In this document: positions 17,344-49,395 of the stretch, piece by piece
Numbering within the stretch: position 1 is the stretch's first letter
How the letters are laid out: every line of letters starts with the position of its first letter
Assembly: GCF_001677475.2 (NCBI RefSeq)
Contig: NZ_CP015229.1
Reading direction: 5' to 3' (one strand)
DNA: 64,000 nucleotides
DNA from: Escherichia coli
GTDB taxonomy: Bacteria; Pseudomonadota; Gammaproteobacteria; Enterobacterales; Enterobacteriaceae
Notes under the pieces: model-generated
Seen by the model: only the letters and a program-made list of their open reading frames with translations
Databases searched by the model: none
What the model was told of the DNA's origin: nothing
Made by a program: the position numbers and the translations under genes

Positions 17344-18447
17344 TTACGCCAGTTGACGAAGCATCCGACGCAGCGGCTCCGCGGCCCCCCACAGCAGCTG
17401 GTCGCCCACGGTAAAGGCTGACAGGAACTCTGGTCCCATATTCAGCTTACGCAGGCGGCCTACCGGCGTGGTCAGCGTGCCGGTAACGGCAGCTGGGGTT
17501 AGCTCACGCATAGTGATTTCCCGATCGTTCGGAACGACTTTCGCCCACGGATTGTGCGCAGCCAGCAGTTCTTCCACGGTCGGAATAGACACATCTTTTT
17601 TCAATTTAATAGTGAATGCCTGGCTGTGGCAGCGCAATGCCCCGACACGCACACATAAACCATCTACCGGAATTACGGAAGATGTGTTGAGGATCTTGTT
17701 GGTTTCCGCCTGCCCTTTCCACTCTTCGCGGCTCTGACCGTTATCAAGCTGTTTGTCGATCCACGGAATCAGGCTACCCGCCAGCGGCACGCCAAAGTTA
17801 TCCACCGGCAGCTCACCGCTACGGGTTAAGGTTGTGACTTTGCGTTCGATATCGAGAATAGCAGAGGACGGGGTCGCGAGTTCATCTGCCACATGGCTAT
17901 ACAGATGGCCCATCTGGGTTAATAACTCACGCATATGTCGCGCACCACCGCCGGAAGCGGCCTGGTAGGTTGCAACGGACACCCAATCAACAAGATCATT
18001 GGCGAATAAACCACCCAACGACATCAACATCAGGCTTACGGTACAGTTACCGCCAACAAAAGTCCTGATGCCATTATTTAATCCGTCGGTAATGACGTCC
18101 TGATTGACGGGGTCAAGAATGATGATGGCGTCATCTTTCATGCGCAGAGATGATGCTGCGTCAATCCAGTAACCTTGCCATCCGCTTTCACGAAGCTTTG
18201 GATAGATTTCGTTGGTATAATCGCCGCCCTGACAGGTCACAATGATATCGAGGGCCTTTAGCGCCTCCAGATCAAAGGCATCCTGAAGTGTGCCAGTGGT
18301 TCCGCCAAAAGACGGCGCAGCCTGACCAAGCTGAGAAGTAGAAAAGAAGACAGGGCGAATGGCGTCGAAGTCGCGCTCTTCAACCATGCGTTGCATGAGA
18401 ACGGAGCCGACCATACCGCGCCAGCCGATAAAACCAACATTTTTCAT
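17344..18447 (-). CDS. asd: Aspartate-semialdehyde dehydrogenase Asd
   Basis: Track ORF 387 aa; conserved start [17 protein letters not shown] gives 367 aa; catalytic Cys region GGNCTVSLM. Confidence 0.95.
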
Positions 18448-18638
18448 AAGCGTTTTTTCCTGCAAAGATGTGTGCTGTATAAATGTGCCGGTCTCCTCTT
18501 GGCACATCTTTCACCATACAAAAAGCAGCCAAAGTCGCAAGTGAAATTAATCAATGATAGCGAAGCCATCAGTAATGCGACTTATCCTGCTTTGTTAGCA
18601 CGCAGAAAGTCCGCGGCAATTATCAGGGAATTTGAGTT

Positions 18639-19232
18639 ATGAATGAAATCATTTCTGCAGCAGTTTTATTGATCCTGATTATGGATCCGCTCGGAAACCT
18701 ACCTATTTTCATGTCCGTACTGAAACATACTGAACCGAAAAGACGGCGGGCAATCATGGTGCGAGAGTTGCTTATTGCTCTCCTGGTGATGCTGGTGTTC
18801 CTGTTTGCGGGTGAGAAAATTCTGGCATTTCTCAGCCTGCGAGCAGAAACCGTTTCCATTTCTGGCGGCATCATTCTGTTTCTGATCGCCATTAAGATGA
18901 TTTTCCCCAGCGCTTCAGGAAATAGCAGCGGGCTTCCGGCAGGTGAAGAGCCGTTTATCGTGCCGTTGGCAATTCCGTTAGTCGCCGGGCCGACTATTCT
19001 CGCCACGCTGATGTTGTTGTCTCATCAGTACCCGAATCAGATGGGACATCTGGTGATTGCTCTGCTGCTGGCCTGGGGCGGCACCTTTGTTATCCTTCTA
19101 CAGTCTTCGCTATTTTTACGTCTGCTGGGCGAGAAAGGGGTGAATGCACTTGAACGCCTGATGGGATTGATTCTGGTGATGATGGCAACCCAGATGTTCC
19201 TCGACGGCATTCGAATGTGGATGAAGGGGTAA
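18639..19232 (+). CDS. yhgN: MarC-family inner membrane protein YhgN
   Basis: 197-aa hydrophobic ORF; position between asd and gntU. Confidence 0.85.
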   Translation: MNEIISAAVLLILIMDPLGNLPIFMSVLKHTEPKRRRAIMVRELLIALLVMLVFLFAGEKILAFLSLRAETVSISGGIILFLIAIKMIFPSASGNSSGLPAGEEPFIVPLAIPLVAGPTILATLMLLSHQYPNQMGHLVIALLLAWGGTFVILLQSSLFLRLLGEKGVNALERLMGLILVMMATQMFLDGIRMWMKG

Positions 19233-19288
19233 CGAGGAGCGTTTTTCGAAAAGAGCCCGGTAGCGTCACAACTACCGGGCGAACAAAC

Positions 19289-20629
19289 TTAACTCAACAG
19301 CTGGAAAGCAATCATCCCAACGATGGCACCGACAGTGCCGAGGATGGTTTCCATCATGGTCCAGGTTTTCAGTGTTTCGGCTTCAGTCGCGCCGGTAAAT
19401 TTACCGAACAACCAGAAACCGGCGTCGTTAACGTGGCTGACAACAATCGAACCACCGGCGATACAAATCGACAGCGCCGCCATTTGCGCACCGGAGTAGT
19501 TCAGTTGTTCAATAACCGGCATCACCAGTCCCACCGCCGTTAAACAGGCAACGGTGGCAGAACCCTGAATGATGCGCACTGCAGCTGCCAGCACGAAGCA
19601 GGTGATGGCAATCGGCAGGCCCATGCCGGTTAACGCTTCGCCCAGTGCCGGACCTACGCCAGAGTCAACCAGCACCTGTTTGAACACGCCGCCTGCACCA
19701 ATCACCAGCAGAATGATCCCCGCCGGTTGCAGCGCGTGACCACAAATTTCCATCACTTTGTCTTTTGGCATGCCCTGACGCATTGCCAGGCCATAAATTG
19801 CTACCAGACAAGCAACCAGAATCGCAGTAAACGGATGACCGATAAACTCAAACCATTCGTAAGCAGTTGATCCTTCTGGTACAAAACGCGCGGCAATGGT
19901 TTTAAGCCCTACCAGTACCAGCGGCAGCAGGATCAGCGACAGGCTAAATCCGAAAGATGGCATTTTGCCTTCACCGAGATGCGGTTCGCTGATGTCGTCA
20001 GGAATATGCAGCTCAACGTAACGGCTGATGAAGTTACCCCACAGCGGCCCGGCAATAATCATTCCCGGAATTGCCGCACACAGGCCAATCAGGATCATCC
20101 AGCCAAAATCGGCGTTCATCTGCGATGCCAGCAGCATTGGCGCAGGTCCAGGCACCAGGAATGCCGCCGCTGCCGCCACGCCTGCGAATAATGGGATTAC
20201 AAGCTTCACCAGGTTCGTACCGGTGTGGCGCGCCATTGAGAAAGCAACGCTAATCAGCAGAACAATCGCCACTTCAAAGAACAGCGGTAGTGCACAGACC
20301 AGCCCCGCAAGGCCGATGGCATAATGCGCGCGGCTGTGACCGAAGGATTTGAGCATTTTGACGGCAATCTGATCGACTGCGCCGGTTTCATGTAAGATCT
20401 TGCCAAACATAGCTCCCAGGGCGACAACCACCGCCAGGAAGCCGAGGGTGCCTCCCATCCCTTTTTCCATCGTCGCTGCGATTTTATCGAGCGGCATACC
20501 GGAAAAAAGGCCAGCCCCCATGGACACCACCATTAAAGCCAGGAAAGCGTGCATACGCGCCTTCATGACTAAAAACAGCAGCAGTAAAACAGACCCTACT
20601 GCTGTTAAAACAAGCGTTAATGTAGTCAC
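19289..20629 (-). CDS. gntU: Low-affinity gluconate:H+ symporter GntU
   Basis: 446-aa polytopic GntP-family ORF; start codon reads as GTG on the minus strand. Confidence 0.9.
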   Translation of the reverse strand: MTTLTLVLTAVGSVLLLLFLVMKARMHAFLALMVVSMGAGLFSGMPLDKIAATMEKGMGGTLGFLAVVVALGAMFGKILHETGAVDQIAVKMLKSFGHSRAHYAIGLAGLVCALPLFFEVAIVLLISVAFSMARHTGTNLVKLVIPLFAGVAAAAAFLVPGPAPMLLASQMNADFGWMILIGLCAAIPGMIIAGPLWGNFISRYVELHIPDDISEPHLGEGKMPSFGFSLSLILLPLVLVGLKTIAARFVPEGSTAYEWFEFIGHPFTAILVACLVAIYGLAMRQGMPKDKVMEICGHALQPAGIILLVIGAGGVFKQVLVDSGVGPALGEALTGMGLPIAITCFVLAAAVRIIQGSATVACLTAVGLVMPVIEQLNYSGAQMAALSICIAGGSIVVSHVNDAGFWLFGKFTGATEAETLKTWTMMETILGTVGAIVGMIAFQLLS

Positions 20630-20632
20630 TAC

Positions 20633-21160
20633 TTATTTGCCTTTTTTAATAACCTCGATGGTGCTTGCCACAACACCTTCCAGCGGTTGATCGATATCCA
20701 CCACCAGTACATCGGTTTCGTCCGCACCCGGCTCCTGCAGCGTTTCAAACTGCGTCACCAACATTTGGGTTTTAAAGAAATGGCCTTTGCGCGCTTTCAG
20801 GCGGCTTTCAATCACATCAAAATCGCCTTTCAGGTAGATGAACGAGAGATTCGGATTACCTTCACGCAGCAAGTCGCGATAGTGTTTTTTCAGTGCAGAA
20901 CAGACGATCAGCGACACTTTATTGGTGCGCTGCATAGCAAACGCGGCGTCGTTCAGCGCCTGCAACCACGGTTTGCGATCGTCGTCATTCAGCGGTTCAC
21001 CAGACGCCATTTTTTCGATATTGCGCCGTGGATGGAGGAAATCGCCATCAAGAAACGCGGCATGAAGTTGATGCGCCACTTCACTGGCGACCGCAGATTT
21101 GCCGCTGCCCGATACGCCCATCAGAACGTAAATGTGGTGATCATGGTTAGTCGTGCTCAA
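20633..21160 (-). CDS. gntK: Thermoresistant gluconokinase GntK
   Basis: Walker A GVSGSGKS; conserved N-terminus (M)STTNHDHH begins at a TTG codon 7 codons inside the track ORF; 175 aa. Confidence 0.85.
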   Translation of the reverse strand: MSTTNHDHHIYVLMGVSGSGKSAVASEVAHQLHAAFLDGDFLHPRRNIEKMASGEPLNDDDRKPWLQALNDAAFAMQRTNKVSLIVCSALKKHYRDLLREGNPNLSFIYLKGDFDVIESRLKARKGHFFKTQMLVTQFETLQEPGADETDVLVVDIDQPLEGVVASTIEVIKKGK

Positions 21161-21192
21161 AGTGGTGCCCCCACAATACAAGAATTAAAAAT

Positions 21193-21222
21193 GTTACGGG
21201 TAACTGTTATCGGTAACATTGT
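21193..21222. promoter_or_regulatory. GntR operator(s) in the gntKU promoter
   Basis: Two adjacent palindromic motifs atgttacgggtaac / gttatcggtaacat just upstream of gntK. Confidence 0.5.
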
Positions 21223-21298
21223 CCAGCCGGACAATATCAGAAGCAATATCCATCCGTGCCTTAAGTGTATAAGTGTGAGCTACTTCAAATTTGTAGGC

Positions 21299-22294
21299 TT
21301 AAATAGATCCGCCCGGTGACAAGGTGAAACCTAAATCTAACATTTTCGGTGTCACAGATTCGCCACGAATACGCGCCAGCAGGCGTTCAGCGCCAATACT
21401 GCCCATCCGCTCACGCGGCGTCAGTACGCTCGCCAACCGTGGTTCCATCACCTGACCAATGTCATGACCATGGAAACCGGCAATCGCCATATCGTCAGGA
21501 ACTTTCAACCCCAGACGCTGGCATTCAAACGCCGCGCCGACTGCCAGGTCATCATTAGTACAGAACACGCCATCCAGCTGCGGATATTCCCGCCTCGCCT
21601 GGCGAATCAGTTCAATACCGGAAGAGTAAGAAGAAGATTGCTCAACCATCACGCTATATGGCACCAGGCCTGCATCCAGCATCGCCTGTTCGTATCCCTT
21701 CTGTTTGATGATAGTACGTTCGTCGAGACGTGCGCCGAGATAGGCAATGTGGCGATGCCCGCGAGCAATAATGGCGGTGGTCATCTGCCGTGCCGCTTCA
21801 AAGTTATCAAAACCGACGGCGATATCGAGGCACGGCGACTGGCTGTCCATCAACTCCACCACCGGGATCCCCGCCACTTCAATCATCTTTAAGGTGCGCG
21901 GCGTGTGGGTACGTTCGGTGAGGATCAGTCCGTCGATATTCCATGAGAGCATTGATTCGAGGCGTTCTTGCTCCATTTCCGGTTTATAACCGTAGTGGGC
22001 CAGCATGGTCTGATAACCGTGCGCGTCGGTGACGCTTTCGATTCCGCGTAATACTTCCGCGAAAACCTGGTTGGTGAGAGAAGGTAACAGGACGCCAATC
22101 GCCCGGCTGGTGGCGTTAGAGAGGATATCGGGCGCACGATTGGGAATATAGCCCAGTTCATCAAGAGCGGCGGCAATCTTGCCGCGTAGAGCGACGGAAA
22201 CCTGCTCCGGGTTGCGTAAAAAACGGCTGACCGTCATTTTGGTCACGCCTACACGGTCAGCCACATCCTGAAGTACGGGTCTTTTCTTTTTCAT
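21299..22294 (-). CDS. gntR: LacI-family gluconate repressor GntR
   Basis: 331-aa ORF; N-terminal HTH (VTKMTVSRFLRNP) plus periplasmic-binding-like effector domain. Confidence 0.95.
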   Translation of the reverse strand: MKKKRPVLQDVADRVGVTKMTVSRFLRNPEQVSVALRGKIAAALDELGYIPNRAPDILSNATSRAIGVLLPSLTNQVFAEVLRGIESVTDAHGYQTMLAHYGYKPEMEQERLESMLSWNIDGLILTERTHTPRTLKMIEVAGIPVVELMDSQSPCLDIAVGFDNFEAARQMTTAIIARGHRHIAYLGARLDERTIIKQKGYEQAMLDAGLVPYSVMVEQSSSYSSGIELIRQARREYPQLDGVFCTNDDLAVGAAFECQRLGLKVPDDMAIAGFHGHDIGQVMEPRLASVLTPRERMGSIGAERLLARIRGESVTPKMLDLGFTLSPGGSI

Positions 22295-22517
22295 CGTCCT
22301 GAAGGTACAAAAGAGATAGATTCTCTTAGTTTAACACGGACGCCTCAGAACCTTCCCGGGGAAAACAGTGCTTGTTTACAATTATTAGATATACACTAAA
22401 TCAATTGCATCGCATTGTGCTAACGACGCGGCAAAACCCCGGAAGCGTACATCAGCACGCGACCGGAGCGAGCGAGGAAGCCTGCAAAAAGGCAGGCTTC
22501 AAAGATGCCGTTGAGTT

Positions 22518-23213
22518 TTAAACCGGCGGCAGATCGAACAGTAACACTTCGCTGTCGCTATCCGCATGGATGGAGATTGCCTGCTCATCCCAGATTGCCA
22601 GACCATCGCTGGTCGAGGCTTTCACGCCGTTAATGGTGACATTGCCTTTCACCACCTGGATCCAGACGCGGCGTTCAGCGGCAATCTGATGCACCGACTG
22701 CTCATCTTTCAGCAATGCCCAACGATACAGTTCCATATCCTGATGCACTTTCAGCGAACCATCTCGCGCATCCGGCGAGAGCACCAGCTGTTTGCCCTGT
22801 ACGGCATCGAAGCGACGCTGTTCATAACGCGGCGTAATGCCGTTTTCTTCAGGCATGATCCAGATCTGATACAGATGCAGACGCTCGGTGCTGCTTGGGT
22901 TGTACTCAGAGTGACGGATACCCGTACCCGCACTCATAATCTGGAACTCACCCGCCGGAACCTGCTCTTTATTGCCCATGCTGTCCTGATGTTCAACAGT
23001 ACCTTCCAGCACGTAGGTCAAAATTTCCATATCTTTATGCGGGTGAGTGCCGAAGCCCTGCCCTGCTTCAATCACGTCGTCATTAATCACGCGCAGCGCG
23101 GAGAAACCCATAAAGTTCGGATCGTAATAGTTGGCAAAAGAGAAAGTATGCCAGGAGTCCAGCCAGCCATGATTTGCATGACCACGTTCATTTGCTTTGC
23201 GTAAGTAGATCAT
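22518..23213 (-). CDS. yhhW: Pirin-like cupin (quercetin 2,3-dioxygenase) YhhW
   Basis: 231-aa ORF; cupin metal-binding His motif (GFGTHPHKDMEI). Confidence 0.9.
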   Translation of the reverse strand: MIYLRKANERGHANHGWLDSWHTFSFANYYDPNFMGFSALRVINDDVIEAGQGFGTHPHKDMEILTYVLEGTVEHQDSMGNKEQVPAGEFQIMSAGTGIRHSEYNPSSTERLHLYQIWIMPEENGITPRYEQRRFDAVQGKQLVLSPDARDGSLKVHQDMELYRWALLKDEQSVHQIAAERRVWIQVVKGNVTINGVKASTSDGLAIWDEQAISIHADSDSEVLLFDLPPV

Positions 23214-23335
23214 TTGTATTCGCCCCCTGAATGTTTTCGATGGGCTTAGTGTGGACCCGATCTGCCTGGGATGATAGAGGGTGAAAATTGACCCCTCTGT
23301 TCAAAAAAATTGAACTATTCGAGGGGCCATCAAAC

Positions 23336-24373
23336 TTACTTCGCGAGAGTCACTGTGGAGGGAGAAGCTTGCTCAAAACCGCGTTCAAGGATTTCCAGAT
23401 TGGTAAGAACTTCAGATTCCTTGACGTAATTTGGCGCACCGTTGGTGATGGTTTGGTACAACGCATCATAAACGCGCCCATAATCGCCCATTTCTGGCTT
23501 CATCTCTTCTCTGACCGTCACGCCCTCTTCATTGACATACTCCAGCACACCGACCGAATCATCCGCCGCGAATCCCGGTTCGCCCGGCATAATATTAGCC
23601 TTCAGGCTGGTTTCCTGCTGGTCGATACCGTATTTAATAAACGAACCTTTCTTACCGTGAACGATAAATTTCGGATAATCGATTTTCACCAGATGGCTGG
23701 TTTTGACGATGGCTTTCAGGTCGCCATAAAACAGCTGCGCTTCAAAGGTGTCGTCAGGATTGGCTTTATTACGCAGGCTGCGGATGTCATAAGCGACGTG
23801 ATCCGGGCGACCGAACAGAGAAATAATCTGGTCCATCGTATGCACACCAAGGCCATAGAACGCGCCATCCTGCGGCAACCCAGGTTTGGTTTCTGCCACC
23901 GGGCGGTAATAGTCAAAATGGCTTTCCACTTCGACAATCTCTCCCAGCTTGCCGCTTTCAATCGCTTTTTTCGCTGTCAGGAAGCAGGAATCAAAACGAC
24001 GATTCTGATACGGCGTGACGGTCAACCCTTTGCTTTTCGCCAGTGCAAAAAGCTCTTTCGCCTGCGCAAGCGTCGGGGTGAACGGTTTTTCGACCAGCAC
24101 ATTTTTCCCGGCTTCCAGCGCGCGTTTCGCGTACTCGAAGTGGCTGTCCGCGTGGGTGCAGACAACAACCAGCTTAACATCGGGATCGTTTAGCACTTCG
24201 TCGAGATCGCTGGTGAAATGGATATGGGAATAAATGGGAGCCTGTTCTTCCGGCTTCGCATGGCGACGAAAAATATGCGCGACATGCCAGCTATCCTTGC
24301 GGTTAAGTACATACGGCAGATGGTAACGGGTGGTGCTTTTGCCGAAGCCAATAAAGGCGCAGTTGATGACCAT
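23336..24373 (-). CDS. yhhX: Gfo/Idh/MocA-family NAD(P)-dependent oxidoreductase YhhX
   Basis: 345-aa ORF; N-terminal Rossmann fold (INCAFIGFGKSTTRYHLP). Confidence 0.9.
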   Translation of the reverse strand: MVINCAFIGFGKSTTRYHLPYVLNRKDSWHVAHIFRRHAKPEEQAPIYSHIHFTSDLDEVLNDPDVKLVVVCTHADSHFEYAKRALEAGKNVLVEKPFTPTLAQAKELFALAKSKGLTVTPYQNRRFDSCFLTAKKAIESGKLGEIVEVESHFDYYRPVAETKPGLPQDGAFYGLGVHTMDQIISLFGRPDHVAYDIRSLRNKANPDDTFEAQLFYGDLKAIVKTSHLVKIDYPKFIVHGKKGSFIKYGIDQQETSLKANIMPGEPGFAADDSVGVLEYVNEEGVTVREEMKPEMGDYGRVYDALYQTITNGAPNYVKESEVLTNLEILERGFEQASPSTVTLAK

Positions 24374-24494
24374 GATTTCGTCCTTTTTAAGGTGATTATT
24401 TACACCTTAGCGCAAAGCGGACGTGGTTCCTACTGGAGTGCGCATAACGAACACAAGCACTTCCCGTGGATAAATTGAAAACGAAAGATCAAAA

Positions 24495-24584
24495 AAAAGC
24501 CAGCACCCGGCTGGCTAAGTAATACTGGAAGCAATGTGAGCAATGTCGTGCTTTCAGGTTCTCCGCGAGGGTCTTCCTGATCGC
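24495..24584 (-). ncRNA. ryhB: Iron-responsive small RNA RyhB
   Basis: Minus-strand sequence GCGATCAGGAAGACCCTCGCGGAGAACCTGAAAGCACGACATTGCTCACATTGCTTCCAGTATTACTTAGCCAGCCGGGTGCTGGCTTTT matches RyhB as I recall it, including the terminator hairpin and U-tail; ends are approximate. Confidence 0.9.
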
Positions 24585-24587
24585 GAG

Positions 24588-24625
24588 ACAATAATAATCA
24601 TTCTCATTCGCACTTGTCCAACACT
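24588..24625 (-). promoter_or_regulatory. ryhB promoter with Fur box
   Basis: AT-rich Fur-box-like sequence (minus strand aatgagaatgattattattg) immediately upstream of the RyhB 5' end. Confidence 0.65.
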
Positions 24626-24705
24626 TTTTGCAAAAAAATGCATTTGACTCGCATTTGAAAGTCAATGATGTTGAAAGGGACATTTACCCCAAAGAGGACA
24701 AAGGA

Positions 24706-25194
24706 ATGAGTGAGATAGTGATACGCCACGCAGAAACACGGGATTACGAGGCCATCAGGCAGATTCACGCCCAGCCGGAGGTGTATTGCAACACACTACA
24801 ACTACCTCATCCTTCGGAAGGCTGGTGGCCAGAAAGATTGAAAGATCGCCAGGGGTTTAAACAACTGGTTGCCAGCATTGATGGCATCGTGGTGGGTCAT
24901 CTTTTCATTGAGGCTTATCAAGGCCCACGCCGTAGTCATGTTGCAACTTTTGGTATCTGTGTTGACTCCCGCTGGCACAACCGCGGCGTCGCCAGCGCCC
25001 TGATCCGCGAATTGATTGAAATGTGCGACAACTGGTTACGGATAGATCGTATTGAGTTGACGGTGTTTGCGGATAACGCCCCGGCAATCGCCGTCTATAA
25101 AAAATTCGGCTTTCACATAGAAGGCACCGGCAAAAATTACGCTTTTCGTAATGGTGAATATGTCGATGCATATTATATGGCGCGGGTGAAATAA
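24706..25194 (+). CDS. yhhY: GNAT-family N-acetyltransferase YhhY
   Basis: Track ORF 188 aa; conserved start MSEIVIRHAETRDYEA gives 162 aa; acetyl-CoA motif RGVASALI. Confidence 0.9.
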   Translation: MSEIVIRHAETRDYEAIRQIHAQPEVYCNTLQLPHPSEGWWPERLKDRQGFKQLVASIDGIVVGHLFIEAYQGPRRSHVATFGICVDSRWHNRGVASALIRELIEMCDNWLRIDRIELTVFADNAPAIAVYKKFGFHIEGTGKNYAFRNGEYVDAYYMARVK

Positions 25195-25221
25195 AGAATT
25201 TGCAATATAAGTTTGTCATTT

Positions 25222-25248
25222 AAGCCCTCACCTACCGGGAGAGGGCTT
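25222..25248. terminator. Bidirectional terminator hairpin shared by convergent yhhY and ggt
   Basis: 8-bp stem aagccctc/gagggctt with 11-nt loop in the 60-bp gap between the two stops. Confidence 0.45.
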
Positions 25249-25254
25249 AAGATA

Positions 25255-26988
25255 TTAATAACCCGCCGTTAAATCATCCACCGAGCGCGGGTCAGATGCG
25301 CCGTACAACTCGCCGTCCGGCCCAACCATAATGCTTTGTGTGCTGCCCATCGCCTCTTTCAGCGCTACTTTCTGACCTTTTGCTTCCAGCAGCTTGAGCG
25401 TATCCGGGCTAAATCCTTTCTCGACACGCAGCTCGTCCGGCAACCACTGATGGTGGAAACGCGGTGCATTGGTCGCTTCGGCGACATTCATACCATAATC
25501 GATGCTATTCACCACCATTTGCAGCACGGTAGTGATGATCCGGCTACCGCCAGGGCTACCGGTGACCAGCCAGGTTTTACCGTCTTTCACCACAATGGTT
25601 GGTGACATCGACGACAGCGGACGTTTATTCGGCCCGACGGCGTTGGCATCACCGCCCACCAGCCCGTAAACGTTCGGTACGCCAGGTTTGGCGGAGAAAT
25701 CATCCATTTGGTTATTAAGCAGAATACCGCTATCACCCGCGACAATGCCCGTACCGAAGGTGGTGTTCAGCGTATAGGTCACCGCTACCGCGTTGCCGTC
25801 TTTATCCACCACTGAGTAATGGGTAGTTTGATTACTCTCATAAGGCGCAAGCTTGCCGGGGCGAATTTCGCTGGATGGCTTCGCTTTATTGATATCGATT
25901 TGATCGGCAATGGATTTGGCATAGGCTTTATTGGTCAGCGCCTGCCACGGCACTTTGACAAAATCCGGGTCGCCAAGATATTCCGAGCGGTCGGCGTAGG
26001 CGTATTTCTCAGCTTCAGCCATGATTTGCATCGCGTCGGCACTGCCAAAGCCGTATTTCTTCATATCGAAGTTTTCCAGAATATTGAGGATTTGTACGAT
26101 ATGGATCCCGCCGGAGGATGGCGGTGGCATGGAGTAAACCTGATACCCGCGATAATCGCCGCTTATTGGTGTGCGTTCGACCGCTTTATACGCCGCTAAA
26201 TCTTCTTTGGTGATCAAGCCACCGTTTTTCTGCATCTCCTGGGCAATCTGTTCCGCTATCGTGCCTTTGTAGAATTCGTCCGGGCCGTTTTCGGCAATCA
26301 TCTCCAGGCTCTTTGCCAGGTTCGCCTGCACCAGCTTGTCGCCCTTTTTCAGCGGCTCGCCCTCTTTCCAGAAGATAGCCTTGCTGTTTTCGTGGTTCGG
26401 CAGCACTTCACTGCCGTAGGTTTTGAGATCGTCTGCCAAAGCATCGTTAACGATAAAACCATCGCGTGCCAGTTTAAACGCCGGCTGCACGACTTTATTC
26501 AGCGGCATAGTGCCGTACTTATCCAACGCCAGCGAGAAACCTGCGACCGTACCGGGCGTGCCGGAAGCCAGATGCGAAGTGAGTGATTTTTTGCTGTCCG
26601 GGTTGCCCTGGTCATCAAGGAACATATCGCGGGTCGCTTTGGCGGGTGCCATTTCGCGGAAATCAATCGCCGTGGTGTTGCCATCTTTAGTGCGGATCAG
26701 CATAAAACCACCGCCGCCCAGATTCCCCGCCTGCGGATGCGTTACCGCCAGCGCATACCCCACCGCCACGGCGGCATCAACGGCATTACCACCTTCTTTA
26801 AGGATATTCACCCCCACCTGAGTGGCAGTAGCATCCACAGACGCCACCATCCCCTGTTTCGCGCGTACCGGATGAAAGACATCTTCCTCCACGCCATAAG
26901 AAACAGGAGGCGCGGCGGCGGCGCTAAAACAACTTCCTGAGAGCAGAGCAGCAATGGCCACCCGGCGTAAAAACGTCGGTTTTATCAT
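25255..26988 (-). CDS. ggt: Gamma-glutamyltranspeptidase Ggt (periplasmic)
   Basis: Track ORF 586 aa; conserved start MIKPTFLRRVAIAALL (signal peptide) gives about 580 aa; catalytic Thr in TTHYSVVD. Confidence 0.95.
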   Translation of the reverse strand: MIKPTFLRRVAIAALLSGSCFSAAAAPPVSYGVEEDVFHPVRAKQGMVASVDATATQVGVNILKEGGNAVDAAVAVGYALAVTHPQAGNLGGGGFMLIRTKDGNTTAIDFREMAPAKATRDMFLDDQGNPDSKKSLTSHLASGTPGTVAGFSLALDKYGTMPLNKVVQPAFKLARDGFIVNDALADDLKTYGSEVLPNHENSKAIFWKEGEPLKKGDKLVQANLAKSLEMIAENGPDEFYKGTIAEQIAQEMQKNGGLITKEDLAAYKAVERTPISGDYRGYQVYSMPPPSSGGIHIVQILNILENFDMKKYGFGSADAMQIMAEAEKYAYADRSEYLGDPDFVKVPWQALTNKAYAKSIADQIDINKAKPSSEIRPGKLAPYESNQTTHYSVVDKDGNAVAVTYTLNTTFGTGIVAGDSGILLNNQMDDFSAKPGVPNVYGLVGGDANAVGPNKRPLSSMSPTIVVKDGKTWLVTGSPGGSRIITTVLQMVVNSIDYGMNVAEATNAPRFHHQWLPDELRVEKGFSPDTLKLLEAKGQKVALKEAMGSTQSIMVGPDGELYGASDPRSVDDLTAGY

Positions 26989-27107
26989 CGTTATTCTCCA
27001 GAGATTAAGGGGCAACCCCAGCTAAGCCTGGTATATAACTCTGAATTAATCCTGATGATTGCAGGAAAGGAGTAAACTTAAAGAATATCTTCAGAGGAGG
27101 ATACGCG

Positions 27108-27500
27108 ATGAAACGACTTCTGATTCTTACGGCACTCCTGCCGTTTGTCGGCTTTGCACAGCCCATTAATACTCTGAACAACCCTAACCAGCCGGGGTAT
27201 CAGATCCCCAGTCAGCAGCGGATGCAAACCCAAATGCAAACGCAGCAAATCCAGCAAAAAGGGATGCTGAATCAGCAACTGAAAACGCAAACTCAGTTGC
27301 AACAACAGCATTTAGAAAACCAGATAAACAATAATTCTCAGCGGGTGTTGCAGTCACAGCCGGGGGAGCGAAATCCCGCCCGGCAGCAAATGCTGCCCAA
27401 CACCAACGGCGGGATGTTAAACAGCAACCGTAATCCGGATAGTTCGTTGAATCAGCAGCATATGCTGCCGGAGAGGAGAAACGGCGACATGCTGAATTAG
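27108..27500 (+). CDS. yhhA: Secreted Gln/Asn-rich low-complexity protein YhhA
   Basis: 130-aa ORF; N-terminal signal peptide ([17 protein letters not shown]), then Q/N-rich repetitive sequence. Confidence 0.8.
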
Positions 27501-27534
27501 CCCAGCACGCCGCAGCCTGATATTCCGTTGAAAA

Positions 27535-28278
27535 CTATTGGGCCGTAAAGTTCGGACCAATCACGTCAATCGCATCGGTACAGATGCAATCCACGCCCCA
27601 GCGCAGCAACTCTGTCGCGCGCTGGGGTTTATTGACGGTATAAACCAGAATCCGTAATCCGGCGTCTTTCAACTGCATCACTCGCGCTTTATCGAGTAAC
27701 TTATGATTGAGATGAATAGAGACGCAGCCCAGCCGCGCGGTCAGTTCTCGCCAGTCGTCGCGCCACTCATCAAGCAATAAACCGCGCGGCAGTTCTGGTA
27801 CTGCTTGTTGCGCGGCTTCTAAAGCATCAATCTCAAACGATGACAGCAGCGGCGGCGTCATATCGGCCCACAGTTCGCGTGCCGCCAGCGCCACCATTTT
27901 GCCCGTTAATGGTCCAGTGCCAGTGGTGGGTTTGATTTCGATATTCGCCATCATCCCGTGTTCACGACAGCGTTCCGCCACCTGCGAAAGCAACGGTAGC
28001 GGCTCACCTTTAAACATTTTGCTGTACCAACTGCCCGCATCCACGCGCAGTAAATCCTGCCAGTTCAGTTCACCCGCGACGCCCCAGCCGTTGCTGGTAC
28101 GTTCGAGATTGTCGTCATGAAGCAGGAAGATCTCGCCATCTTTCGATAACTTCGCGTCAAATTCGATCATCTTATGACCGTATTTTGCCCCGACGTCGAT
28201 TGCCGCCAGGGTGTTTTCGGGGGCCAGCTTACCGCCGCCACGATGAGCGACGATGCGGGGATAAGGCCAGTTACTCAT
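27535..28278 (-). CDS. ugpQ: Cytoplasmic glycerophosphodiester phosphodiesterase UgpQ
   Basis: 247-aa ORF; GDPD-family catalytic His (IVAHRGGG). Confidence 0.95.
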
Positions 28279-29345
28279 ACTCGTTGTCCTGTTTCACCAT
28301 CAAAAAGATGCAGCTGATTTTCCGCCAAATGCAGCCACAGCGTGCTGCCTGCCGTCGGGCGCTCCTGATGCGCCAGTCGCACCACCAGCTTCTGCTCGCC
28401 CCAGCGTCCGTGCGCCAGGTTATCTGCGCCGAGGATCTCCAGCGTATCCATCACCAGCGGTACGCCACCTTCTGCTTGCGAGCTTAGCGCAATATGTTCC
28501 GGGCGAATGCCGAGGGTCATTTTACGCCCGGCATACTGACGGTAGCCACCGTTTAGCGGCAGCTCAATACCGCCGTCCAGTTCGAAATGCGTGCCTTCGT
28601 TATTCACGCGGCCTGTCAGCAGGTTCATCGCCGGGCTGCCGATAAAACTCGCCACAAACAGGCTGGCGGGCTTTTCATACACTTCAACCGGAGTGCCAAT
28701 CTGTTCGGCAACGCCGCCGTTCATCACCATCACCCGCTGAGCGAGCGTCATCGCCTCAACCTGATCGTGAGTAACGTAGAGTGAAGTCGTTTTCAGGCGA
28801 CGGTGCAATTGCTGCAACTCAAGGCGCATCTGCACGCGCAGCTTGGCATCAAGGTTCGAGAGCGGCTCATCAAACAAAAATACCGCCGGATCGCGCACAA
28901 TCGCGCGCCCCATTGCCACGCGCTGGCGCTGCCCGCCGGAAAGCTCACGCGGGCGACGTTTGAGCAGACCGTCCAGCTCCAGAATGCGCGCCGCTTCTTT
29001 AACGCGCTCGGCTATTTGCTGCTTGCCCATGCCGCGAATTTTCAGCCCCCACGCCATGTTTTCTTCGACGCTCATATGCGGATAAAGCGCGTAGTTCTGG
29101 AACACCATCGCAATCCCGCGATCTTTCGGCTCCATTTCGGTCACACGCTCATTGTTGATCCAGATATCGCCTTCCGTTACCCGCTCCAGCCCGGCAACCA
29201 TGCGCAGCAGCGTGGATTTCCCGCAGCCAGACGGCCCGACCATCACGATAAATTCGCCATCCGCCACATCAAGGGTCAGCGGTTTAATCACCTGGGTTTT
29301 GCCATCCCAGCTTTTGGTTACTGCCTGTAATTTCAGTCCTGCCAT
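28275..29345 (-). CDS. ugpC: sn-glycerol-3-phosphate ABC transporter ATP-binding protein UgpC
   Basis: Track ORF 369 aa; conserved start [13 protein letters not shown] gives 356 aa; Walker [10 protein letters not shown] and signature LSGGQRQR. Confidence 0.95.
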
Positions 29346-29346
29346 C

Positions 29347-30192
29347 TTATTTCTCACTATCGACCAGGCCGCGCACGAAGGCACGCTGCATCACTAAAAC
29401 AATCACTACTGGTGGGATCAGGGTTAACAACATCGCCGCCATCACCGAGTTCCATTCCGTGGTGCCTTCGCCAGTGGCGATCATCCCTTTAATCCCTGCC
29501 ACGGTGGTGCCGAGATCAACGTCGGTAATAATCAACAACGGCCACAAATACTGGTTCCAGCCGTAAATAAAGGTGATCACAAACAGCGCCGCCAGATTAG
29601 TTTTGGAGAGCGGAAAAACGATGTCGCAAAAGAAGCGCATTGGTGACGCACCGTCGATCCGCGCCGCTTCCACCAGCTCATCCGGCAGCGTCATAAAGAA
29701 CTGGCGGAAAAGAAACGTGGCGGTCGCCGAGGCCATCAGCGGCAGCGTTAAACCGGCGTAGCTGTCGAGCATCTTCAGATTGGCGATGACTTCCACCGTC
29801 GGGAAAATACGCACTTCAACCGGCAGCATCAGGGTGATAAAAATCATCCAGAAGAATAGGTTACGTAGCGGAAAACGAAACCAGACAATGGCAAATGCCG
29901 AGAGCATCGAGACGGTAATTTTGCCGAGCGTAATGCTGAACGCCATCACAAAGCTGTTAAGCAACATCCGCCAGAACGGCGCGCTATTCGTGCCTACCCC
30001 GTTCACCCAGATGTTGTGGATGTTTTCCAGCAGATGCGTGCCGGGGATGAGCGTCATCGGCGCGGCGTAGACGGCCTGTTTATCCAGCGTCGCCGCGACA
30101 AACGCCACGTACAGCGGGAAGAGGATCACCGCGATCCCGAGGATCAGCATGGTATGGCTGAATATCGTCAGCCACGGACGGTTCTCAATCAT
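29347..30192 (-). CDS. ugpE: sn-glycerol-3-phosphate ABC transporter permease UgpE
   Basis: 281-aa polytopic ORF; operon position. Confidence 0.95.
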
Positions 30193-31076
30193 TGGTAACG
30201 CACCTTGCTTTCAACATAGCGGAACTGCACCACCGTCAGCACGATGACGAGGAACATCAACACCACCGACTGCGCGGCAGACGAAGCCAGATCCAGTCCG
30301 GTAAAGCCTTCGCGGTAAATCTTATAAATCAGCGTCGTGGTGGCCTGAACCGGCCCGCCGGACGTGGCGGCGTCGATCACCGGGAAGGTGTCGAAGAAGG
30401 CGTACACCAGGTTCACCACCAGCAGGAAGAAACTCACCGGGGCGATAAGCGGCAGAGCAATCTTAAAGAAGCGGCGAATCGGCCCTGCACCGTCGATGGC
30501 TGCGGCTTCGATCAACGAACGGGGAATGGATTGCAGCGCGGCATAGAAGAACAGAAAGTTGTAGCTGATTTGCTTCCACACCGAGGCAAACACCACCAGA
30601 AACATTGCCTGACCGCTGTTTTGCGCGTGGTTCCAGTCGTAGCCGAACTCAGCGAGAAAATGGGTGATCAGCCCACGGCCGGGGTTAAACAGGAAGATCC
30701 ACAATACTGCGGCAACGGCGGGAGCCACGGCATACGGCAGCAGCATCAAGGTTTGATAGAAACGACTGCCGCGCACGATGTACTCCACCAGCGCCGCGAA
30801 GAACAGCGACACCAGCAAACCGCTAACGGTGACAAAGGTGCTGAATTTTATCGTCGTCCAGAAGGAATCGAGATAGTAGCTGTCATGGAACAGCGTGACG
30901 AAGTTATCCAGGCCGACAAACTGGCTGGAGAAACCAAACGGATCGACGCTTTGTAGCGAGTACCACAACGCTTCGCCCGCAGGCCAGATAAAAAAGATAA
31001 CGGTGATGATGAGCTGCGGCGCGACCAGCAGATAAGGCAGCCAGCGCGAGCGGAACACCGGACGGGATGATGACAT
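30189..31076 (-). CDS. ugpA: sn-glycerol-3-phosphate ABC transporter permease UgpA
   Basis: 295-aa polytopic ORF; operon position. Confidence 0.95.
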
Positions 31077-31094
31077 TACGGTTAATTCCTGAAC

Positions 31095-31165
31095 TGTGCC
31101 GGATGCGCTTCGCTTATCCGGCCTACACGCGATGCCAGGTCAGATAAGCGAAACGCATCCGACAT
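31095..31165. repeat. REP/BIME element in the ugpB–ugpA intergenic region
   Basis: REP-type palindromes tgccggatgcgcttcgcttatccggcctac and gtcagataagcgaaacgcatccgac. Confidence 0.7.
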
Positions 31166-31173
31166 TACACTGA

Positions 31174-32490
31174 TTAAGACTTCGTCGATTTCTCAAAGCG
31201 GCGCAGTAACTGATTCCCACGCTCAACGGCGGTATCCAGCGCCTGCTGTGGCGTCTTCTTACCGGTCCACACGCTCTCCAGCTCTTCATCCACAATCACG
31301 CGGATTTGCGGCATGTTGCCCAGACGCAGCCCTTTGGTGAACGGCAACGGCGGCTTGTTCAGCATCTGACGCGTCGCGGTATCCGCCCCTGGGTTTTTCT
31401 CATAAAAGCCCTGCTCACGGGTCAGGTCATACGCTGCTTTGGTGATTGGCAGATAACCGGTTTTCTGATGCCACTCGGCAGCGTTTTCTGGCTTCGCGAG
31501 GAAGTCGAGGAACTTCGCCACGCCGGTATACGTTTCTTTATCTTTGCCCTGCATCACCCACAGGCTGGCTCCGCCGATAATGGCATTTTGTGGCGCATCT
31601 TTCGCGTCAGCGTCGTAAGGCATCATGCCTACGCCATAGTTGAATTTGGCGTACTCGCGAATGTTGGCAAGCGAACCGGAAGAGGCGGTGGTCATCGCGC
31701 AATCACCGTTATAGAACTTCTCGGTGGATTCATCCTTACGACCGACGTAGCTGAAGTCGCCCTTCTTGTTCATCTCCTCGAGCATGGCAATGTGTTTCAC
31801 CTGCTCCGGCTTGTTGAACTCCAGCACCGCGTCCGTGCCGTCAAAACCGTTGTTTTTGCTGGCAAACGGCAGACCGTTCCAGGCGCTAAAGTTTTCCAGT
31901 TGGATCCAGCCCTGCCAGCCGCTGGCGTAGCCGCACTTCATACCGGAGGCTTTCAATTTTGCGGCATAGTCCGCCAGATCCTGCCAGGTTTTCGGCGGCT
32001 GTTCCGGGTCTAATCCTGCTTTCTTGAAGGCGTCTTTGTTGTAATAGAGTACGGGGGTCGAGCTGTTGAACGGCTGGGAGAGTAAGTGGCCCGTTTTGCT
32101 GTCGGAGTAGTAACCGGAAACCGTCGGCACAAACTGCGATTCATCGAATTGAATCCCCGCCTCTTTAAACACGTCATATACCGGTTTAATGGCTTTCGAC
32201 GCCATCATGGTGGCGGTGCCAACTTCATAAACCTGCAAAATAGCCGGAGCGTTGCCGGTACGAAATGCGGCAATCCCCGCGCTTAAATTCTGTTCGTAGT
32301 TGCCTTTATAGGTCGGTACAATTTTGTAATCCGGGTTTTCGGCGTTAAAACGTTGGGCCAGAGAATCCACCTCTTTACCCAGTTCCCCTTCCATAGAATG
32401 CCAGAACGGAATGGTCGTCACTGCCTGTGCATTCCCCATTAACGCCAGTCCGAGCGCCAGTGCTGAAGCTGTATAATGTAACGGTTTCAT
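31174..32490 (-). CDS. ugpB: Periplasmic sn-glycerol-3-phosphate-binding protein UgpB
   Basis: 438-aa ORF with signal peptide; solute-binding protein heading the ugp operon. Confidence 0.95.
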
Positions 32491-39290: not shown

Positions 39291-40394
39291 TTACTTCGCA
39301 TCGGTCGCCGTGCCGTTGGCGTGCCAGTCAAATACGCCGAACTCAAAGCCTTTCAGATCGCCTTTCTCATCCCACGTCAGCGGCCCCATCACCGTATCAA
39401 CCGAGTTCGCTTTCAGGTATTTGGCGATCTCCGCCGGATCGTCAGACTGATTCAGCCCCGCCTGCAAAGATTGCAGCGCCGCGTAGGTGGTCCAGACGAA
39501 TGCGCCGCTTGGATCCTGTTTTTTCGCTTTGATCGCGTCAACAATCGGTTTGTTCGCCGGAACCTGATCGTAGTTCTTCGGCTTGGTCACCAGCAGTCCT
39601 TCCGCTGACTCGCCCGCGATATTAGACAGCGAGACGTTAGCCACACCTTCCGGCCCCATAAACTGAGTTTTCAGCCCCGCCGCGCGCGCCTGACGCAGGA
39701 TCTGCCCCATTTCCGGGTGATAACCGCCGTAGTAAACGAAGTCGATATTCTCTTTCTTCAGGCGTGCCACCAGCGTCGAGAAATCTTTTTCCCCGGCGGT
39801 GATGCCATCAAAGAACACTACGTTAGCATTGCCTTTCTTCAGGCCGTCCTGCACCGCACGCGCCAGACCTTCGCCGTACTGTTGTTTGTCGTGAACGATA
39901 GCAATACGCTGCGGTTTCACTTTCTCAAGAATATATTTTGCCGCCGTCGGCCCCTGGTCGGAATCCAGGCCGGTGGTGCGCAGGATCAGCTGATAGCCAC
40001 GGGCAGTCAGCTCTGGCGCGGTTGCCGCTGGGGTGATCATTAAAATGCCTTCGTCTTCATAAATGTCAGACGCTGGCTGTGTTGATGAAGAACAGAGGTG
40101 ACCAATGACATATTTAATGCCGTCGTTAACCACTTTGTTCGCCACCGCGACGGCCTGTTTCGGGTCACAGGCATCGTCATATTTTACGATTTGCAGTTTA
40201 TTGCCTTTAATGCCGCCTTTAGCGTTGATATCCGCAACCGCCTGCTCTGCGCCGGTAAACTCCTGATCGCCGTACTGCGCAACCGGACCGGACATTGCGC
40301 CCACGACGGCGACTTTAATATCTTCTGCCAGAGCCATATTGCTGAATGCCAGCGCGATACATCCTGCCAGTAACGCTTTACCCTTTATGTTCAT
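39291..40394 (-). CDS. livJ: Leu/Ile/Val-binding periplasmic protein LivJ
   Basis: Track ORF 386 aa; conserved start [17 protein letters not shown] (signal peptide) gives 367 aa. Confidence 0.95.
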
Positions 40395-40665
40395 CCTGAG
40401 AATCCCCATTCTTCTGGTTATTACGTGTGTTGTGATGTTGTTGTTCAGCACTTTATTTCGTTTTATGCATGACTACCCGTGCTTTAGCAGCATACTCTGC
40501 TAAAACATACCCGATTTTTATGATATTGGAATAGCTATTTTGACAGTTTATTAACAATCTGCGTGGGGATTGGCGTTTTGCCGGAGGGGGAAACTGATTA
40601 TTGCAGAGGCCCAAAAAACAAAAACCCCGGATTCTCATCCAGGGTTCTCTGCTTAGTAGCGGAAA

Positions 40666-41520
40666 TTACGCTTCAATGGCAGCGCGAAGTTTTTTCATCG
40701 CGTTCTTTTCCAGCTGGCGCACACGCTCAGCGGAAACACCGTAACGGTCAGCCAGTTCCTGCAACGTGGACTTGTTGTCTTCGTCCAGCCAGCGCGCGCG
40801 GATGATATCCTGGCTACGCTCGTCCAGACCTTGCATCGCGTCGGTCAGACGGTTTGCCGCCTGCTCTTCCCAGTTATCATCTTCGATGCCGTCGGCAAAG
40901 TTAGATGATTTATCCTGCAGATAGAGCACCGGTGCCATCGGCTGGCTGTCGGAATCGTCGTCGGAAGACAGGTCAAAGGTCATGTCCTGTGCCGCCATAC
41001 GTGATTCCATCTCACGTACGTCTTTGCTGGTTACGCCCAGTTCACGGGCCACCATTTCGACTTCATCCTGGTTAAACCAGCCCAGACGCTGCTTGGTTTT
41101 ACGCAGGTTGAAGAACAGTTTGCGCTGCGCTTTGGTGGTCGCAACTTTGACGATACGCCAGTTACGCAGAACGTATTCGTGGATCTCTGCTTTGATCCAG
41201 TGAACGGCGAAGGAGACCAGGCGCACACCCACTTCCGGGTTGAAACGGCGCACTGCTTTCATCAGGCCGATGTTACCTTCCTGAATCAAATCCGCCTGTG
41301 GCAGGCCATAGCCCGCATAATTACGAGCAATATGAACAACAAACCGCAGGTGAGACAGGATCAGCGTTTTAGCTGCTTCCAGATCGCCATGGTAATGCAG
41401 CTTTTCAGCCAGCGCCCGCTCCTCGTCAGCCGACAACATCGGCCACGCGTTAGCTGCCCGGATGTAGGAATCCAGGTTGCCAACTGGGGCTAAAGCTAAA
41501 CTTTGCATTTTGTCAGTCAT
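40666..41520 (-). CDS. rpoH: Heat-shock sigma factor RpoH (sigma-32)
   Basis: 284-aa ORF; sigma-70-family regions 2 and 4. Confidence 0.95.
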
Positions 41521-41626
41521 TCAAATCCTCTCAATCGATATCTTCTGGCGCTTCAGTGGTAGCAACAACTGTGCCAGAGCTTAAGAGCAACGAGGTTATC
41601 ATTCACTGTTTTATCAGACCGTGATT

Positions 41627-41635
41627 TTATCCACA
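41627..41635. promoter_or_regulatory. DnaA box in the rpoH multi-promoter region
   Basis: Exact consensus 9-mer TTATCCACA about 110 nt upstream of rpoH. Confidence 0.5.
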
Positions 41636-41764
41636 AGTTCAATGCAAGCTTGTGAATAAATTACGCACAAAATGTGACATAGAGATGAAATACCGGGAAG
41701 AGACAACGGGGTCTCTTTCCCTGCTACGGAACCCATTGCAGGGAAAGAGTATAACACGCTTTTA

Positions 41765-42823
41765 TTATTCAGGCGTAAAGTGGCGTAAATGTTGTACCGT
41801 GGCAAGCCACGCTGCCACCCAGCCAATCATCGAGCATACCAGCAGCAATAGCAGGCATTCATCGAACGATAAACCATTGATATCAAACTTCGTTCCGAAA
41901 ACCTGTGCCACTTCCGCAACCGCCGATGACAATCGCAGTACCAGAATTTCTGACAAAATTAGTGACAACAATGCGCCAGAAAACCCCAGCAATGCGCCAC
42001 CATACAGGAACGGGCGCAGGATGAAACCATCCGTTGCACCAATCAGTTTCTGCACGTTAATGGAGTCACGACGAGCAAAGATACTCAGGCGTACACTGTT
42101 ACCGATGACGAGGAACACTGCCGCCACCATCAACACGCCGATCATCGCCGAAACGCGCCCGACCAGCCCGGTCAACGCCGCCAGACGGGCAAACCAGCTG
42201 TCATCCATCCGCACTTCGTCAATGCCGTTAATCTGCGTGATACGATCACGCAGCGTATTGAGTGATTCCGTCCCCTGAAAATCGAGTTTCGGGATCACCA
42301 CCGCCACTGCCGGAAGCGGGTTTTCTTCCAGCATATCCAGCGCACCACCAAAACCAGACCAGTTACGGAACTCGCCCAGTGCGTCTTCACGAGAAAGATA
42401 GTTCACTTTCTCCACGCCTTGCTCGGCCTGCAACTGTGCCACCACGCCCGCAGCGGCGTCATCGTCCAGCGTTTTTTGCAGATAAACAGTGATTTGCGGT
42501 GACGGATAATACTGCGTCGCCGCCTGATTAACGTTTTTGTACACCATATAACAGACGCTGGGCAGCGTCAGGGAGATGGCGATAACCATCACCGTTAAAA
42601 ATGTGGCGAACGGTTTGCTTTTCAGATCCTGCAATGCGCCGTGGAAGGCATAGCGCACCTGTTCGTTGAAAACGTTGGTTTTGCGATTAACCGGTTTTGG
42701 CGAGGATTTCGCGCGTTTCGGCGCGTTACGACCGCCGTCGCCAGAGCCGCCGACCGATTTACGGAAGCGATCAAGACGCCCGCCAAACTGCCGAATATGA
42801 TTGATTGCATCGCGCTTATTCAT
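41765..42823 (-). CDS. ftsX: Cell-division ABC-transporter-like permease FtsX
   Basis: Track ORF 361 aa; conserved start [15 protein letters not shown] gives 352 aa; overlaps the ftsE stop. Confidence 0.95.
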
Positions 42824-43484
42824 GGCCCACGCCTCCATGCAAGTGACCATCGCTCAGGGTGAGCATGCGATAGGAACGCCGCGAAATCAGGTTGATGTCG
42901 TGCGTTGCCATCAATACGGTTACCCCAACGCGGTTAAACTCTTCAAACAGACGTAAAATGCCTTCCGACAGCGCGTCGTCCAGGTTACCGGTCGGTTCGT
43001 CCGCCAGAAGTACCGCAGGCTTGTTCACCACCGCGCGGGCAATGCCAACACGCTGTTGTTCACCGCCGGAAAGCTGAATAGGAAAGTTCTTCGCTTTGTC
43101 CAGTAGCCCGACTTTATCCAGTGCCGCCGATACACGACGACGAATATCGTCACCGCTGGCACCGGCGATAATCAGCGGGATCGCCACGTTATCGTAGACA
43201 GTACGGTCCATCAGTAGATGGTGATCCTGGAAAATCATGCCAATCTGGCGGCGCAGAAACGGAACTTCACGGTTTTTCAGACGCGTGATGTCATGGCCGC
43301 TAAACCAGATTTTCCCGGCGCTGGGCCGCTCAATCCCACAGATCAGCTTCAGGAGGGTACTTTTCCCTGCGCCGGAATGACCGGTCAGAAACGCCATCTC
43401 ACCCGGCTGCATATGGAACGTAACGCCCTGCAGCGCCTGTCTCCCACCGAGATAAGCCTTGCTGACATGTTCAAAGCGAATCAT
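42816..43484 (-). CDS. ftsE: Cell-division ATP-binding protein FtsE
   Basis: 222-aa ORF; Walker [10 protein letters not shown] and signature LSGGEQQRV. Confidence 0.95.
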
Positions 43485-43486
43485 TG

Positions 43487-44983: not shown

Positions 44984-45132
44984 TTGCGACTACACTCCTC
45001 GCTGTTGCTTCATGGCACAGCGTTAACGCTATGTACATAGCAGCTAAAAAAATGATGAAATAGTCTATCACTTAACTTAATTCACATCACCGCCTGCAAG
45101 TATGTGTTATCTGGCGGATTGAGCAATTTATC

Positions 45133-45988: not shown

Positions 45989-45990
45989 CC

Positions 45991-46350: not shown

Positions 46351-46490
46351 CTTTATCCCTCATCGGAAAATGCGGAAATAAGCATACCCTGCCAGTTATG
46401 GTGTTGTCATCCGTCCACCCTCGCCACTAAACTGGAAGCAAGACCGTAGGCATTCCGCTTACGAAAAAATAACGAATTCAAGGAACTAAG

Positions 46491-47117: not shown

Positions 47118-47124
47118 TAAAACT

Positions 47125-49389: not shown

Positions 49390-49395
49390 GGCAAA

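Follow-up and report, generated by a model that had tools for sequence, protein, structure and literature searches.

We analyzed a window of 64,000 nucleotides (the whole stretch of DNA) and located in it the small RNA gene ryhB, which occupies positions 24491..24584 on the minus strand, with +1 at the G of position 24584. This placement is based on the Rfam family RF00057 together with identity to the gene of E. coli K-12. The downstream neighbor, yhhX, lies at 23336..24373 on the minus strand and encodes a GFO/IDH/MocA oxidoreductase (Pfam PF01408 and PF02894), and the divergent upstream neighbor, yhhY, lies at 24706..25194 on the plus strand and encodes a GNAT N-acetyltransferase (Pfam PF00583). 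Both genes were named from their Pfam domains and from K-12 synteny, and the order yhhX-ryhB-yhhY is the same as that in K-12; a divergent yhhY start codon upstream of ryhB was also seen in other Enterobacteriaceae. No tRNAs and no notable tandem repeats were found in the window. On direct reading, the minus strand of 24495..24625 runs through ...TTGGACAAGTGCGAATGAGAATGATTATTATTGTCTC and continues at once with GCGATCAGGAAGACCCTCGCGGAGAACCTGAAAGCACGACATTGCTCACATTGCTTCCAGTATTACTTAGCCAGCCGGGTGCTGGCTTTT; taken from 5' to 3', it presents TGGACA (24620..24615), the AT-rich run GCGAATGAGAATGATTATTATTGTCTC and then GCGATCAGGAAGACCCTCGCGGAGAACCTGAAAGCACGACATTGCTCACATTGCTTCCAGTATTACTTAGCCAGCCGGGTGCTGGCTTTTTTTT. 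The 90-nt form of RyhB extends to 24495 and the full U-tail to 24491 on this strand. The stretch singled out by the earlier note (24495..24625) therefore corresponds to the 90-nt RyhB (24495..24584) plus the promoter up to the -35 element.

The whole window was scanned against Rfam 15 at gathering thresholds, and RyhB (RF00057) was the sole family that reached threshold in the 64 kb. The match obtained with cmscan covered 24491..24555 on the minus strand, scored 83.1 bits where the gathering score is 55 (E = 3.6e-14), and spanned model positions 1-67 of 67, so that it was not truncated. The Rfam model leaves out the first third of the RNA (24556..24584), and this 5' part was therefore checked against K-12 MG1655 (NC_000913.3), whose annotation gives ryhB (b4451) as a 95-nt ncRNA flanked by yhhX and yhhY. 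The alignment took in the whole yhhX-yhhY intergenic region (337 nt). The RNA carried no substitutions relative to b4451, and the sole difference inside the gene was the length of the T-run, which is 8 in the window and 9 in K-12. The 121-nt spacer upstream of ryhB was also free of substitutions relative to K-12; the spacer between the terminator and yhhX differed by two substitutions and one further indel. The earlier note had claimed a RyhB match on the minus strand, and the claim is upheld on both counts by which it could be checked: the covariance-model score is far from poor, standing 28 bits above the cut-off, and the K-12 alignment shows no mismatch in the seed or elsewhere in the RNA body. 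Of 5,426 complete E. coli genomes searched with megablast, 5,424 contain the 401-nt ryhB region; every hit is chromosomal, and the median number of places per genome is one. The 64-kb window contains a single copy.

Nucleotides 34-61 of RyhB (24524..24551, minus strand) make up an invariant 28-nt core, GCACGACAUUGCUCACAUUGCUUCCAGU. When one genome per species was scanned for exact matches, this core turned up in at least 120 stretches, which belong to Enterobacterales, Vibrionaceae and Aeromonas; the matches listed include Escherichia, Citrobacter, Enterobacter, Klebsiella, Yersinia, Serratia, Pantoea, Photorhabdus, Aeromonas, Photobacterium and Aliivibrio. The seed, GACAUUGCU (24539..24547, minus strand; RyhB nt 38-46), was defined by complementarity to sodB. 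We searched for the longest exact Watson-Crick match in the region from -60 to +40 of K-12 sodB, a gene located outside the window, and found the seed to be exactly complementary to AGCAAUGUC, which extends across the sodB AUG from -4 to +5; we estimate that about 0.03 exact complementarities of 9 nt would be expected by chance. The sodB pairing reportedly described by Geissmann and Touati in 2004 agrees with this seed match. Within the core, a direct repeat of the form ACAUUGCU-C-ACAUUGCU lies at 24530..24546 (RyhB nt 39-55), and its first copy is the one that pairs with sodB. A full-length RNAduplex comparison of RyhB with the sodB leader was set aside, since its energy of -35 kcal/mol was equalled or bettered in 57 of 500 shuffles and intramolecular structure is ignored in this calculation.

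The secondary structure was evaluated as three helices, namely a 5' stem-loop, a core hairpin and a terminator. The 5' stem-loop (24554..24580, minus strand) pairs UCAGG (24576..24580) with CCUGA (24554..24558). The Rho-independent terminator (24491..24516, minus strand) consists of a 7-bp stem, AGCCAGC/GCUGGCU, closed by a 5-nt loop (24498..24516) and followed by a U-run of 8 (24491..24498), and the terminator scan counted 5 G-C pairs in its stem. Among 32 distinct full-length homologues, 95.6% of the cells of the three-helix structure were paired, compared with 27-51% in a slid control in which the 3' partners were moved by 1-3 columns; moreover, 6 pairs were changed on both sides, a number that was reached in none of 500 shuffles. 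In the 5' stem, 4 of 6 pairs showed compensatory changes and 93% of the cells were paired across the 32 homologues; the terminator has such changes in 2 of its 7 pairs, where A-U is replaced by C-G in 5 sequences. The core hairpin is neither supported nor contradicted by this analysis, because it never varies among the 32 homologues. The fold of the single sequence had a minimum free energy (MFE) of -24.1 kcal/mol, which is no better than that of shuffles (z = -0.59), so that covariation in helices 1 and 3 is the only support for the structure. The 5' hairpin of that fold, GCGA/UCGC, was rejected, as covariation backs UCAGG/CCUGA instead. RNAalifold, applied to the 32 homologues, yielded the core hairpin and the terminator and nothing else; it missed the 5' helix because MAFFT misaligns the variable 5' arm in the Pantoea and Erwinia-type sequences, and this helix was accordingly named by hand and then counted on the alignment. 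A second terminator-like hairpin at 24452..24468 (minus strand) was judged non-functional, as it has 3 G-C pairs, a poor T tail and a K-12 indel inside it. The RNA also has an A/U-rich stretch. The terminator and the U-tail would together form the Hfq-binding module of class I sRNAs, and Hfq binding is predicted on this ground.

Upstream of the RNA, a sigma-70 promoter was identified at 24591..24620 on the minus strand, with the -35 element TGGACA (24615..24620), an 18-nt spacer and the -10 element TATTAT (24591..24596), which stops 6 nt before +1 (24584). It fits 10 of 12 positions, is the sole promoter-like site on both strands of 24350..24800, and is the same in K-12. We scored Fur boxes against the 19-bp consensus GATAATGATAATCATTATC and found an operator at 24587..24611 composed of two overlapping boxes. 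The first (24587..24605) matches at 16 of 19 positions on one strand and at 15 of 19 on the other, and the second (24593..24611) at 14 of 19. The first box is the sole site with at least 15 of 19 matches in the 64 kb, where dinucleotide shuffles lead one to expect 0.13 such sites. Together, the boxes extend over positions -3 to -27 and so take in the -10 hexamer along with most of the spacer. Among the matches listed, ~115 homologues had enough flanking sequence, and nearly all of them carry a Fur box with at least 14 of 19 matches at a distance of 50-72 nt upstream of the core; its relative position was the same from Escherichia to Vibrionaceae and Aeromonas. Chen et al. (2007; PMC2189734) described a 25.2-bit Fur site, overlapped by weaker ones, directly before ryhB, and reported a Fur gel shift with a ryhB oligonucleotide whose sequence is the same as that of the site in the window. 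The AT-rich repeat had been noticed in advance as Fur-box-like, and this reading is supported by its 16/19 score, its conservation among homologues and the published gel shift (PMC2189734).

Directly upstream of the -35 element, at 24625..24636 (positions -41..-52), the sequence contains an A/T palindrome, TTTTTGCAAAAA, which is perfect and is kept in most of the Enterobacteriaceae genera examined (Escherichia, Citrobacter, Enterobacter, Kluyvera, Lelliottia, Leclercia and others). From its sequence and position, the palindrome looks like an UP element, and such a function may be ascribed to it. A conserved GTCAAC stands beside it and reads TTGAC on the other strand, which is a possible -35 element for yhhY. 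The ordinary reading of the conserved ryhB-yhhY spacer would be an UP element together with a divergent yhhY promoter. A more speculative proposal is that TTTTTGCAAAAA is the operator at which a second regulator other than Fur acts on ryhB and, separately, that the nonapeptide RyhP discussed below is real in Escherichia; we attach a very low probability to this proposal and retain the ordinary reading. Between ryhB and yhhY, the direct repeat GCATTTGA is found twice, at 24640..24647 and 24651..24658, spaced by 11 bp. It was considered as a regulator site and rejected, and it is probably due to chance, because the second copy is conserved neither in other genera nor even in E. albertii.

The ryhB gene is overlapped on the same strand by a 64-aa ORF (24489..24683) taken from a mechanical listing of open reading frames. 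If this ORF were a real small protein gene, ryhB would have a sense overlap with a coding sequence. The frame is indeed open from an ATG with a GGGG run 4-7 nt upstream, and identical or near-identical 'hypothetical proteins' have been deposited from E. coli and Shigella. The comparative evidence, however, points in the opposite direction. Among the RyhB homologue matches listed, the frame is open from its ATG solely in E. coli; in E. albertii the ATG is missing and a stop lies 99 nt upstream of the core, and in Citrobacter, Enterobacter, Klebsiella and the other genera listed the frame stops 45-66 nt upstream of the core. The C-terminus is set by the length of the terminator T-run, which itself makes the stop codon: the product is 64 aa long in the window, in many strains it reaches 84 aa, and with the 9 T of K-12 the frame continues. 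Accordingly, the 90%-identity protein cluster that contains the exact 64-aa sequence has members of 58, 64, 73, 78, 81, 84 and 142 aa, and the named members, which come from E. coli or Shigella only, are all labeled 'hypothetical' or 'uncharacterized'. The ATG precedes the ryhB +1 by 99 nt, the start codon of the divergent yhhY is 23 nt away from it, and the scan of 24350..24800 gave no promoter-like site upstream of the ATG on the same strand. No Pfam family was found above cut-off for the predicted product. A RING-finger match (E = 0.054; 13.7 bits against a cut-off of 27) was dismissed as noise from a Cys-rich chance translation. Furthermore, the ORF is called neither by PGAP nor in the K-12 annotation. 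We therefore judge the ORF to be spurious and the idea of a 64-aa gene to be effectively refuted, with hardly any probability left to it. The statement of the earlier note that this ORF is almost certainly not coding agrees with the comparative evidence and can safely be applied to this frame only, because another ORF, for which translation has been claimed in the literature, is intact here.

That ORF was described by Neuhaus et al. (2017; PMC5331693), who claimed that ryhB of the EHEC strain EDL933 encodes a nonapeptide, RyhP (MAHIASSIT), with an ATT start. In the window, the RyhP ORF (ATTGCTCACATTGCTTCCAGTATTACTTAG; 24515..24544, minus strand) is intact and identical to the published sequence, reads IAHIASSIT* as written and (M)AHIASSIT with an initiator methionine, and lies in a frame that differs from that of the 64-aa ORF. 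It can accordingly be proposed that ryhB has a dual function, in which the riboregulator is also translated into RyhP from the ATT at 24544 and the peptide exerts an effect of its own under iron limitation. The same study reported ribosome footprints on ryhB in EHEC and found that plasmids expressing the peptide differed in competitive index from controls with a stop codon (PMC5331693), and the 30-nt ORF is preserved in the window, without any change, together with the upstream GGAGAA. Against this proposal, the 9-codon form was kept in only ~35 of 115 homologues among the matches listed, and the length of the ORF ranged from 7 to >48 codons among the 115 homologues listed. In most Enterobacteriaceae genera among these matches, the frame runs for 13 to >48 codons through the terminator, the stop having been lost because of a 1-nt indel in the U-rich spacer. 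The constancy of the first 7 codons is uninformative, because they lie inside the 28-nt core that was used as the search pattern. In addition, the ORF has an ATT start and a weak Shine-Dalgarno sequence, its site also pairs with targets and Hfq, and the published phenotype comes from overexpression only (PMC5331693). Conservation of the RyhP ORF does not go beyond what the RNA function would impose among these homologues. Overall, we consider a second, peptide-coding function of ryhB to be unlikely. That RyhB is 'purely non-coding' is nevertheless not proven, because footprints on RyhB and a RyhP phenotype have been reported (PMC5331693). If RyhP were true, it would supplement the role of RyhB as a regulatory RNA and not displace it.

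We further compared the surroundings of ryhB with other genomes. Identity to K-12 was 97.4% for yhhX and 82.8% for yhhY, and yhhW and yhhX both fall within 97-98%. The divergence of yhhY is unevenly distributed: nt 1-95 are nearly identical to K-12 and nt 96-441 are ~76% identical; there are 84 mismatches in all, 53 of which fall on the third position of a codon, and the proteins agree at 137 of 162 residues. This pattern suggests that yhhY is a mosaic allele, with a putative recombination breakpoint inside the gene near 24801, adjoining the conserved ryhB spacer. On the other side of yhhY, the K-12 island yhhZ-yrhA-IS1E-yrhB (~3.4 kb; yhhZ encodes an Hcp-family effector), which lies between yhhY and ggt in K-12, is absent from the window, where yhhY adjoins ggt across a 60-nt spacer (25195..25254). 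This direct yhhY-ggt junction is common to 1,213 of 5,426 complete E. coli genomes, with a best identity of 97.3%. Other strains carry different inserts at the yhhY-ggt site, for example IS1 or RecQ/DprA genes. None of the complete RefSeq E. coli genomes was at least 99% identical to the window over the 14 kb around ryhB (18000..32000; best 97.3%), and none was at least 99% identical over the 10 kb around rpoH-zntA (40000..50000; best 98.1%). E. albertii and a divergent 'E. coli' species representative were 90-94% identical to those stretches. From the lack of a match of at least 99%, the window seems to derive from a lineage of Escherichia or Shigella with no close representative among the RefSeq complete genomes. 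The view that this is E. coli-type DNA, which had been put forward from the letters of the sequence, was right, with the refinement that the stretches tested are less than 99% identical to any complete RefSeq E. coli genome.

Such divergence could raise the possibility that the copy is a decayed or silent remnant of RyhB in a divergent Escherichia lineage: the two tested stretches differ by 2-3% from all complete RefSeq E. coli genomes, and ryhB adjoins a mosaic yhhY next to the site of the missing island. However, the RNA, the promoter, the Fur box and the upstream spacer are 100% identical to K-12, in contrast to yhhW and yhhX (97-98%) and yhhY (83%), and decay is accordingly given almost no credence. 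Perfect conservation of the RNA, the promoter and the spacer amid diverged flanks would fit purifying selection on a functional ryhB.

Taken together, these results leave us with very little doubt that the locus is ryhB, encoding the RyhB sRNA that is directly repressed by Fur, and that the 64-aa ORF is an intergenic frame open by chance and not a gene. No sequence evidence contradicting the RyhB identity was found. As far as can be judged in silico, the RNA is RyhB proper and not a variant, since every family-defining feature that can be tested in this way is present. The finding is right and ordinary; it is already known and holds no new biology. From the identity with K-12 we infer that expression, repression by Fur and dependence on Hfq would also apply to the strain from which the window derives.

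On this basis, regulation may be pictured as follows. Under iron-sufficient conditions, Fe2+-Fur would occupy the operator over the -10 element and the spacer and shut out RNA polymerase, and under iron scarcity Fur would be released and the strong ryhB promoter would fire. RyhB would then bind Hfq through its U-tail and its A/U-rich region and be stabilized by it, and the core would pair with the ribosome-binding or initiation regions of sodB, sdhCDAB, acnB, fumA, ftnA, bfr and other mRNAs, the targets being mRNAs of non-essential iron-using proteins. Pairing would block translation and recruit RNase E for coupled decay and, because of this recruitment, RyhB and its target would both be degraded. 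The decay of the targets would spare iron for essential enzymes, the 'iron sparing' response. This mechanism is said to go back to Masse and Gottesman in 2002, Masse et al. in 2003 and 2005, and Geissmann and Touati in 2004.

The locus is also of some interest for annotation. The PGAP-annotated RefSeq genome NZ_CP183129.1 carries no ryhB feature despite the presence of the sequence; ryhB is annotated in NC_000913.3, and some GenBank records place a 'hypothetical protein' over ryhB. Because PGAP leaves ryhB unannotated and some GenBank records carry a protein instead, marking such ORFs as artefacts has some curation value. The locus furthermore serves as a positive control, in which a known sRNA and its operator were recognizable from raw sequence and the overlapping mechanical ORF was rightly distrusted.

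Fur-repressed sRNAs that lower the levels of iron-using proteins by a RyhB-like logic occur elsewhere in bacteria, namely PrrF1/2 in Pseudomonas, FsrA in Bacillus and IsrR in Staphylococcus; to our knowledge, none of these is homologous to RyhB in sequence. Closer relatives are the RyhB1/RyhB2 pair of Yersinia, RyhB/IsrE of Salmonella and other pairs in Enterobacterales, which resemble the copy in the window in having the 28-nt core, the terminator and a promoter covered by a Fur box. The 5' stem-loops of RyhB in other Enterobacterales differ in sequence and keep their pairing. Genera with paralogues have two loci per genome, whereas the window has a single copy. Among the matches listed, two core loci per genome were found in Yersinia, Photorhabdus, Serratia, Pantoea, Pectobacterium, Brenneria, Erwinia, Mixta and Acerihabitans, which we take to correspond to the known RyhB paralogues. 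In Salinivibrio, the RyhB core is present as two copies in tandem, which are separated by ~300 nt and have a Fur box each. The closest counterpart is RyhB of K-12 MG1655, which shares with the window the RNA sequence, the promoter, the Fur operator, the yhhX and yhhY neighbors and the complementarity to sodB.
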